Below are positions 3,808 to 4,105 of a stretch of DNA of 4,604 nucleotides, piece after piece. The position numbers and the translations under genes are program-made. The notes under the pieces were generated by a model, which had not been told where the DNA came from, ran no database searches, and worked only from the letters and a program-made list of their open reading frames with translations. The stretch spans positions 1 through 4,604 of the IMG/VR virus record IMGVR_UViG_2690316347_000014; one strand, given 5' to 3'. The DNA is from a virus. Taxonomy: Duplodnaviria > Heunggongvirae > Uroviricota > Caudoviricetes. Position 1 is the stretch's first letter. Each line of letters begins with the position of its first letter.

Positions 3808-4097
3808 TGAGGTAGCCTGAGTTTAACGGACACTCCTTCCTGAAATAGAATGGCATCAGAAGGAGCTAATAATGAGCAGAAAAACCCAACGTTACTCTAA
3901 AGAGTTCAAAGCCGAAGCTGTCAGAACGGTTCTTGAAAATCAACTTTCGATCAGTGAAGGCGCTTCCCGATTATCTCTTCCTGAAGGCACTTTAGGACAA
4001 TGGGTTACCGCCGCCAGAAAAGGGCTCGGTACTCCTGGTTCCCGCACGGTGGCTGAACTGGAATCTGAAATTCTGCAACTGCGTAAGGCGTTAAATG
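3808..4097 (+). mobile_element. Remnant of an IS3-family insertion sequence (IS600-like): left terminal IR plus the 5' part of orfA only
   Basis: Begins TGAGGTAGCCTGAGTTTAACGGACACTCC 12 bp after the ydfA-like stop; orfA SD AGGAG and ATG at 3872. Similarity to the IS stops after ..LRKALN (about 4097), where Rha-like sequence begins. No transposase orfB and no right end. Confidence 0.7.
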
Positions 4098-4105
4098 TTG
4101 GATAA
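3872..4105 (+). CDS. Truncated IS3-family transposase OrfA (HTH N-terminal part, 75 of about 100 residues, plus 2 junction-encoded residues)
   Basis: MSRKTQRYSKEFKAEAVRTVLENQLSISEGASRLSLPEGTLGQWV.. is a typical IS3-family OrfA HTH (recalled as IS600-like); the leucine-zipper region and frameshift window are missing; the ORF ends VG* at the junction. Confidence 0.75.
   Translation: MSRKTQRYSKEFKAEAVRTVLENQLSISEGASRLSLPEGTLGQWVTAARKGLGTPGSRTVAELESEILQLRKALNVG

Follow-up and report, generated by a model that had tools for sequence, protein, structure and literature searches.

IS600 belongs to the IS3 family of insertion sequences, in which orfA and orfB are joined by a −1 programmed frameshift (at an A7G site) to give a DDE transposase. 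In this family, OrfA multimerisation requires the C-terminal coiled-coil region (as in IS911), end-to-end junctions with a 3-bp spacer are typical, and the adjacent deletions made by a transposase stop at one end of the IS. In Shigella sonnei, expansion of IS elements and gene loss linked to them are typical (PMC7373316). In the isrK-orf45-anrP module of Salmonella Gifsy-1, AnrP expression raises antQ mRNA levels, and growth arrest mediated by IsrK correlates with AnrP being translated; the same paper also remarks on 'fused' anrP annotations of 287 aa (PMC4825925).

The locus described here was analysed as a stretch of 4,604 nt, referred to below as the window (positions 1 to 4,604 of IMG/VR record IMGVR_UViG_2690316347_000014). 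As in other instances of IS-driven pseudogenisation in Shigella (PMC7373316), IS insertion is accompanied by the loss of adjacent DNA and by several IS600 copies and variant rearrangements at one locus of an IS-dense chromosome; unlike the IS-driven deletions described there, one endpoint lies within the IS rather than at its end or between whole copies. The remnant beside ydfA shares with IS600 nt 1–290 (the left inverted repeat, a promoter-like site, the orfA Shine-Dalgarno (SD) sequence and 75 OrfA codons), and lacks nt 291–1264 (the end of orfA, the A7G site, the orfB DDE transposase and the right inverted repeat). As in the Gifsy-1 module, the Rha genes of three intact relatives (loci L002, L003 and L024) lie directly downstream of isrK and a C4-type RNA, and correspond to proteins of ~185 aa. 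The window keeps 433 bp of this gene, its 3' four-fifths, and is without isrK, the C4-type/orf45 element, the native SD, and the first 36 and last 3 codons. The proposed Rha-AnrP link is based on the isrK/C4 context, gene size and the 'fused' 287-aa remark. Finally, the Cro/DicC-type, DicA-like and ydfA genes have the same order and orientation as in the dicA-ydfA region of the E. coli K-12 Qin prophage. K-12 Qin has ydfB, ydfC, DicF and dicB, whereas the window prophage and L024 carry a different gene set without them; in the L024 lineage, ydfA is followed by a 68-aa ORF, a 98-aa ORF, isrK, a C4-type RNA and Rha.

Taken as a whole, the feature is very probably an inert scar in a decaying, Qin/Rac-like S. 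sonnei prophage, left by the insertion of IS600 beside ydfA and a later deletion of ~2.25 kb.

Gene content of the window

The window covers the part of a lambdoid prophage that serves immunity and replication. Its minus strand carries a 62-aa ORF, a DUF977 gene, a DnaC/YdaV-like ATPase gene, a broken O-like gene, a broken YdaT-like gene and a Cro-like gene. An intact plus-strand gene (3030–3437; 135 aa; Pfam HTH_3) encodes a DicA-like helix-turn-helix (HTH) repressor; in relatives 96–99.9% identical, it is adjoined by a divergent Cro/DicC-type gene, annotated as DicC in one of them. An intact DUF1391 gene follows on the same strand (3640–3795; Pfam DUF1391, E = 3.5e-28), and is annotated as ydfA in the relatives. 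Upstream of it, a consensus scan and an inverted repeat point to a putative plus-strand promoter, TTGACC-18-TAAATT (3534–3563), situated between AACCTAAG/CTTAGGTT operator-like repeats. These operator-like repeats occur at positions 2990–3005 (the cro/dicA intergenic region), and at 3509–3524 and 3547–3560 (by the ydfA promoter-like site); repeats at both sites are expected if the DicA-like repressor controls both. Judging by the Qin-type synteny, the DicA-like protein is the likely repressor of the ydfA-side promoter.

The intact relative that serves as our model of the ancestral state, and from which deletion size was calculated, is L024 (E. coli FDAARGOS_943). It is 98.9% identical to the window over positions 75–3810 and 98–100% identical over the 3' part of Rha, lacks an IS600 downstream of ydfA, and carries Rha intact. 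Compared with L024, the O-like replication gene of the window is broken by a 10-bp deletion and a change in the length of a T run, and the ydaT-like gene by a 1-bp deletion; differences in this O-like/ydaT-like region lie at positions 1777, 1795–1830, 1921–1928 and 2704. The copy number of a (CTCTTC)n tract differs among S. sonnei strains. In and around the O-like gene, a palindromic box of 20–24 nt, TGTAACGC-N-GCGTTACA, is present in three copies spaced ~200 bp apart (1855–1878, 2064–2087 and 2256–2279). These boxes may be candidate origin or regulator binding sites.

A truncated IS600 beside ydfA

Immediately downstream of ydfA, base-by-base comparison with L024 identifies positions 3797–3807 (ATGAACGAGAC) as the first 11 nt of the plus-strand 68-aa ORF, and their end as the IS600 insertion point. 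From position 3808, where the remnant begins with TGAGGTAGCC, to 4097, the plus strand is IS600 nt 1–290: 289 of the 290 positions match a RefSeq-annotated, 1264-bp IS600 (99.7% identity, a single mismatch). The left terminal inverted repeat is present with its 5'-TG (TGAGGTAGCCTGAGTTTAACGGACAC from 3808 onward, the same as in the annotated element), flanked on the left by GAC. A consensus scan finds a plus-strand promoter-like site, TTAACG-17-TAGAAT, in the left end (3823–3851), and both this site and the orfA SD are intact.

The truncated orfA reading frame (3872–4105, plus strand; 77 aa) matches IS600 OrfA for exactly 75 of 100 residues before ending in V-G-stop, with the TAA stop codon at 4103–4105. 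An IS left end and some 75 orfA codons, giving way to Rha at about position 4097, had been anticipated from the letters of the sequence; the alignments place the switch at 4097/4098, and the identity of all 75 retained residues, together with the near-perfect DNA match from the first base of the element, bears out the proposed IS origin of the frame. Within the OrfA stub, the Pfam HTH_Tnp_1 domain is complete (profile positions 2–75 of 75). The stub therefore keeps its HTH, while part of the C-terminal coiled-coil region is gone.

The rest of the element is missing. IS600 homology ends at nt 290 (window position 4097), the right end of this copy has been deleted, and its right inverted repeat is absent. 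The A7G frameshift site (IS nt 316) falls 26 nt beyond the break and hence outside the remnant, and a domain search of the window found no rve domain of an orfB/DDE transposase in the remnant. With no right end, frameshift site or orfB, transposition by the remnant alone is impossible; its left end may still be used in trans, by a transposase or by homologous recombination.

An internal fragment of Rha

The DNA that follows the remnant (4098–4530, plus strand) is a Rha/AnrP-like gene, running from codon 137 of the 284-aa form (~codon 38 of the 185-aa form) to 11 nt before the stop codon. On its 5' side the nearest intact allele is that of L003, to which it is 100% identical for ~140 nt after the join; over the remainder it is 98–100% identical to the L024 allele. 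Membership of the Rha family is backed by two profiles that pass their cut-offs: Pfam PF09669 (78.0 versus 29.9 bits) and TIGR02681 (74.4 versus 45.95 bits). The Phage_pRha match covers profile positions 18–90 of 91, and that of TIGR02681 starts at position 31 of 108. In the intact alleles of L002, L003 and L024, the pRha match begins at position 1 of the profile, at residues 117–120 of coding sequences of 280–284 aa. Measured against these three alleles, the N-terminus of the window copy has truly been cut: residues 1–36 in the 185-aa numbering are gone. With them, the sole domain recognised in the protein loses 17 of its 91 Pfam positions (30 of 108 for TIGRFAM), or roughly one-fifth. Some 75 C-terminal residues beyond the pRha domain are kept. 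A PDB search for solved Rha-domain structures gave no meaningful match.

The full Rha-family coding sequences are annotated by RefSeq at 280–284 aa (L002, 4641–5483; L003, 4593–5447; L024, 7732–8580). Their N-terminal ~100 annotated residues overlap isrK and the C4-type antisense RNA recognised by Rfam, and the stretch overlying these two RNA genes is matched by Pfam Phage_ASH. A downstream Met preceded by a GGAGG SD (L003 position 4890) gives a Rha protein of 185 aa. The real protein probably starts at this Met, and the 280–284-aa annotations, perhaps along with part of the Pfam family, may be RNA genes in translation.

In the window, an ATG at the join opens a chimeric plus-strand ORF of 160 aa (4095–4577), made up of the junction Met, 144 residues of Rha and a 15-residue tail that is encoded by an inverted IS600 end and replaces the last three residues of Rha; MLDKIRNLDCSAK is a peptide from it. 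The original prediction of an internal Rha fragment was thus correct at the 5' side, but it missed that the 3' end is also cut, by an inverted IS600, and that both ends of the window are IS600 sequence. In one assembly (UDZG01000072.1; locus L010, ~4590–4610), ATTACTT forms a 7-bp duplication immediately before the inverted IS600, and the Rha fragment is 153 rather than 160 aa long.

The junction and the ATG that it creates

The deletion junction lies at positions 4096–4097, where the dinucleotide TG is the sole sequence common to both parents (IS600 ..TTAAATG/AAGC; Rha ..GAACGAGTG/TTGGAT, the slash marking the break). Over a longer stretch, the IS600 parent reads ..GCGTTAAATG/AAGCTC and the Rha parent ..CACGAACGAGTG/TTGGATAAA, and the window reads ..GCGTTAAATG/TTGGATAAA. 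The match to E. coli Rha begins at window position 4096, such that Rha is entered at codon 136 of the annotated 284-aa form, or approximately codon 37 of the likely 185-aa protein. Alignment to a full IS600 and to intact Rha genes accordingly confines any microhomology to TG, and maps the endpoint that was proposed to lie inside the IS, away from its ends, to IS600 nt 290.

The join also creates a start codon. In the ATG at 4095–4097, A derives from IS600 and TG is common to both parents; the codon replaces an in-frame Rha GTG (Val), equivalent to V37M in the 185-aa numbering. As had been predicted, this ATG is in frame with Rha and starts 8 nt upstream of the stop codon of the truncated orfA (4103–4105), an overlap of 11 nt with the stop codon included. 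SD-like pairing upstream of the new ATG (−4.2 kcal/mol) is weak compared with that of orfA (−8.0 kcal/mol), ydfA (−8.1 kcal/mol) or the native Rha start (−9.5 kcal/mol), and local folding detected no stable RNA structure that would hide or expose it (z = 0.40).

What the deletion removed

By comparison with L024, the deletion took 1,278 bp from the prophage and 974 bp from IS600 (nt 291–1264), a total of ~2.25 kb. The lost 1,278 bp hold the 68-aa ORF, the 98-aa ORF on the opposite strand, the isrK sRNA, the C4-type RNA and the start of Rha. Rfam searches agree: the window gives no isrK match at the gathering score and no C4 RNA (RF01695), both of which are found in L002, L003 and L024.

The division-inhibitor genes of Qin are a separate matter. 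DicF (searched with Rfam) and DicB, YdfC and canonical YdfB (searched with tblastn) are absent from the window, from the S. sonnei loci and from L024; all were recovered from L003, the positive control for these searches. The statement that ydfB, ydfC, dicF and dicB are missing after ydfA is thus literally true, but their absence had been wrongly attributed to loss, since the nearest intact relative is without them too. In this prophage lineage, dicB/dicF-type genes probably never lay between ydfA and Rha, as far as the compared sequences indicate.

IS600 copies and rearrangements around the window

Both extremities of the window are IS600 right ends. Positions 1–74 (plus strand) are nt 1191–1264 of a copy to the left, with its right inverted repeat (IRR) ending at position 74 and 100% identity to the L001 IS600; positions 4531–4604 (minus strand) are the right end of a second, inverted copy that runs out of the window. 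Together they form a perfect 74-nt inverted repeat that brackets the entire window, and this accounts for its assembly as a contig of its own. The right-hand inverted copy has unrelated flanks (TTT versus GGG), its far flank being the 3' part of recE, and so marks a second rearrangement or deletion. An inverted IS600 also lies downstream of Rha in L024; it is not the same insertion, being at a different site with a clean TTG duplication.

Three further IS600 junctions are seen in the same locus. In three complete genomes, L004, L005 and L006 (10660–13090), a full inverted IS600 directly abuts the right-hand copy, which there lacks nt 1–97 (nt 98–1264 remain); IS600 may have inserted into IS600 here, with recombination as the next step. 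Downstream of the Rha fragment, L007 and L009 have one IS600 copy only. In AKND01000010.1 (L009/L019), the bracketed window segment lies between its chromosomal flanks in the opposite orientation to that in L006, which suggests an IS600-mediated inversion polymorphism. In UGZB01000001.1 (L005, 9880–9945), window positions 75–3804 are gone, and the 290-bp stub adjoins a complete IS600 through an IRR-GAC-IRL junction (IRL, left inverted repeat), of the 3-bp-spacer type seen in the IS3 family. This end-to-end junction suggests that the left end of the stub is still a substrate in trans, and it might form a putative promoter reading into the truncated orfA and Rha. Upstream of the left end of the stub, four short-read draft assemblies (L012, L013, L020 and L023, ~9700–10000) have unrelated chromosomal DNA. 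The integrase fragment beside modC, for example, would fit an inversion through recombination of the stub with an inverted full IS600; these drafts may represent either true recombinants or mis-joins through the 290-bp repeat.

Proposed origin of the scar

The junctions can be accounted for by three events. Firstly, the small ORF downstream of ydfA would have received IS600 after its first 11 nt; the sequence shows the site, and the order of events is inferred. Secondly, a collinear deletion of ~2.25 kb, whose endpoints are likewise visible, would have removed IS600 nt 291–1264 and 1,278 bp of prophage DNA. On the Rha side, such a deletion would take the entire control region (isrK, the C4-type/orf45 element and the GGAGG start) along with the first 36 codons; on the IS side, it would take the frameshift site and orfB. 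Thirdly, a second, inverted IS600 would have replaced the last three Rha codons and everything up to the 3' part of recE.

We propose that the deletion arose after IS600 insertion, by illegitimate recombination (slippage or end-joining). An endpoint within the IS and an overlap of 2 nt argue for this route over a transposase-made deletion, and the endpoint likewise argues against homologous recombination between IS copies; the overlap is itself too short to serve as proof of a microhomology mechanism. The Rha fragment retains its native orientation relative to ydfA, and in complete genomes neither IS600 nt 291–1264 joined to prophage DNA nor the 5' half of Rha occurs within 10 kb. These observations fit a simple collinear deletion, and on the same grounds inversion or transposition in place of deletion was rejected. 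Among 5,426 complete E. coli genomes and the examined S. sonnei loci, none had the postulated intermediate, with Rha intact and an entire IS600 on the ydfA side, and for this reason the order of events is inferential.

An unlikely, though not negligible, alternative is that IS600 activity produced the deletion in stages: a second IS600 in the same orientation inserts into Rha codon 136/137, the two copies recombine with loss of the intervening DNA, and an aberrant transposase reaction, in which the right end attacks a site within its own element, deletes nt 291–1264 as far as the IS terminus. IS600 copies do interact at this locus, where a full IS600 abuts nt 98–1264 of another and where, in L005, a full copy is joined to the remnant by the IRR-GAC-IRL junction; the Rha side of the join begins with TG, like the ends of IS3-family elements; and IS600 is highly active in S. 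sonnei (PMC7373316). However, a TG at this position would equally be expected by chance approximately 1 time in 16, no target-site duplication or other trace remains, no intermediate was seen among the 5,426 E. coli genomes or the examined S. sonnei loci, and three events are required where one suffices. We also considered, and rejected, an extended transposon, in which the inverted IS600 and the 433 bp of Rha moved together into the first IS600 via a surrogate TG end. This model predicts IS600 nt 288–1264 to the right of the inverted copy, where the 3' part of recE is found instead.

Coding potential of the chimeric reading frames

Under the preferred reading, that of insertion followed by collinear deletion, the chimeric 160-aa ORF is most likely nonfunctional, and the chance that it gives a functional product is very small. 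Translation of the ORF by termination-reinitiation would nevertheless be physically possible. A transcript could come from the weak promoter in the IS600 left end (3823–3851) or by read-through from the ydfA promoter-like site, the latter of which should be kept off by the intact DicA-like repressor. No terminator-like sites were detected on the plus strand between positions 3563 and 4440. Most assemblies carry the 77-aa and 160-aa ORFs without interruption; given the strong clonality of S. sonnei, this is a poor guide to selection.

One functional reading is a two-gene unit, in which the IS600 promoter and the orfA SD drive expression of the OrfA stub, and reinitiation at ATG 4095 yields a shortened Rha/AnrP free of IsrK/orf45 control. 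The products might be a constitutive or dominant-negative anti-repressor fragment and an OrfA stub that modulates IS600. In its favour, the promoter-like site is intact, the SD of orfA is strong, start and stop codons overlap with no inhibitory RNA structure and no intervening terminator-like site, the ~75 Rha residues beyond the pRha domain survive, and AnrP of Gifsy-1 is itself coupled to an upstream ORF (PMC4825925). Against it, the predicted protein is without 36 N-terminal residues, a loss that extends into the recognised domain by 17 of 91 Pfam positions, and its C-terminus is 15 residues of IS origin; ATG 4095 has only a weak SD; one assembly carries the frameshifting 7-bp duplication; the neighbouring genes are decaying; and the OrfA stub has lost part of the coiled-coil, with full-length OrfA supplied by many other IS600 copies. 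On balance, we regard such a unit as improbable. More improbable again is the bolder form of the idea, with the IS600 stub serving as a portable expression cassette for a repressor- or partner-binding Rha/AnrP-like protein, a constitutive modulator of the cryptic lambdoid prophages of S. sonnei. In strains of the L005 type, the IS3-type junction promoter might raise expression of the truncated orfA and Rha further.

The junction in other genomes

The window is collinear, at 99.7–99.9% identity and with both junctions spanned, with three complete records: HE616528.1 (S. sonnei 53G), CP044151.1 and CP026802.1. A fourth record of complete-chromosome length, UGZB01000001.1, gives a shorter, 801-nt match across the IS600/Rha junction, and several draft assemblies are also collinear with the window. 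In a public collection, exact copies of the 77-aa ORF occur in 134 blocks and of the 160-aa ORF in 99. Among 5,426 complete E. coli genomes, neither the ydfA/IS600 join nor the IS600/Rha join occurs (0 of 5,426 for each). A search of genome_contigs with the exact 39-nt junction returned 0 matches, a result that is probably uninformative; to our knowledge, that collection has no species representative of its own for S. sonnei.

There is next to no chance that the junction is an assembly artefact produced by a mis-join through repeated IS600 sequence. Such an error might be suspected from the window being a short contig that ends within IS600 repeats, and from several drafts in which this 290-bp IS600 stretch is preceded by unrelated DNA. 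Yet ydfA, IS600 nt 1–290 and the Rha fragment follow one another at 99.7–99.9% identity in independent complete chromosomes, including that of S. sonnei 53G, and the 2 nt common to the two parents are far too little for an assembly-graph mis-join. Equally remote is the reading that the Rha ORF is complete, with ..NLDCSAKF.. close to its natural N-terminus, or that the orfA-like ORF is not IS-derived: the intact homologues run further upstream in all three alleles, with the GGAGG SD before an upstream Met, the window copy enters its two profiles at positions 18 and 31, and OrfA identity holds over 75 residues, with 289/290 DNA identity from IS600 base 1.

Significance

As a type of event, this is routine IS-driven pseudogenisation, at a junction already present in the reference genomes of a well-sequenced pathogen. 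It offers a clean example of a deletion endpoint inside an IS, with little import beyond annotation, for which two practical points follow: both chimeric ORFs are to be annotated as pseudogene fragments, and the 290-bp stub is a repeat able to confuse short-read S. sonnei assemblies. An expressed and active chimeric ORF would make the locus a modest case of an IS remnant rewiring a phage regulator.

For the biology of S. sonnei, the scar shows how one cryptic prophage lost its isrK/C4-controlled Rha (AnrP-like) module. A module of the isrK type can trigger growth arrest in Salmonella, and its loss may have been neutral or mildly beneficial.
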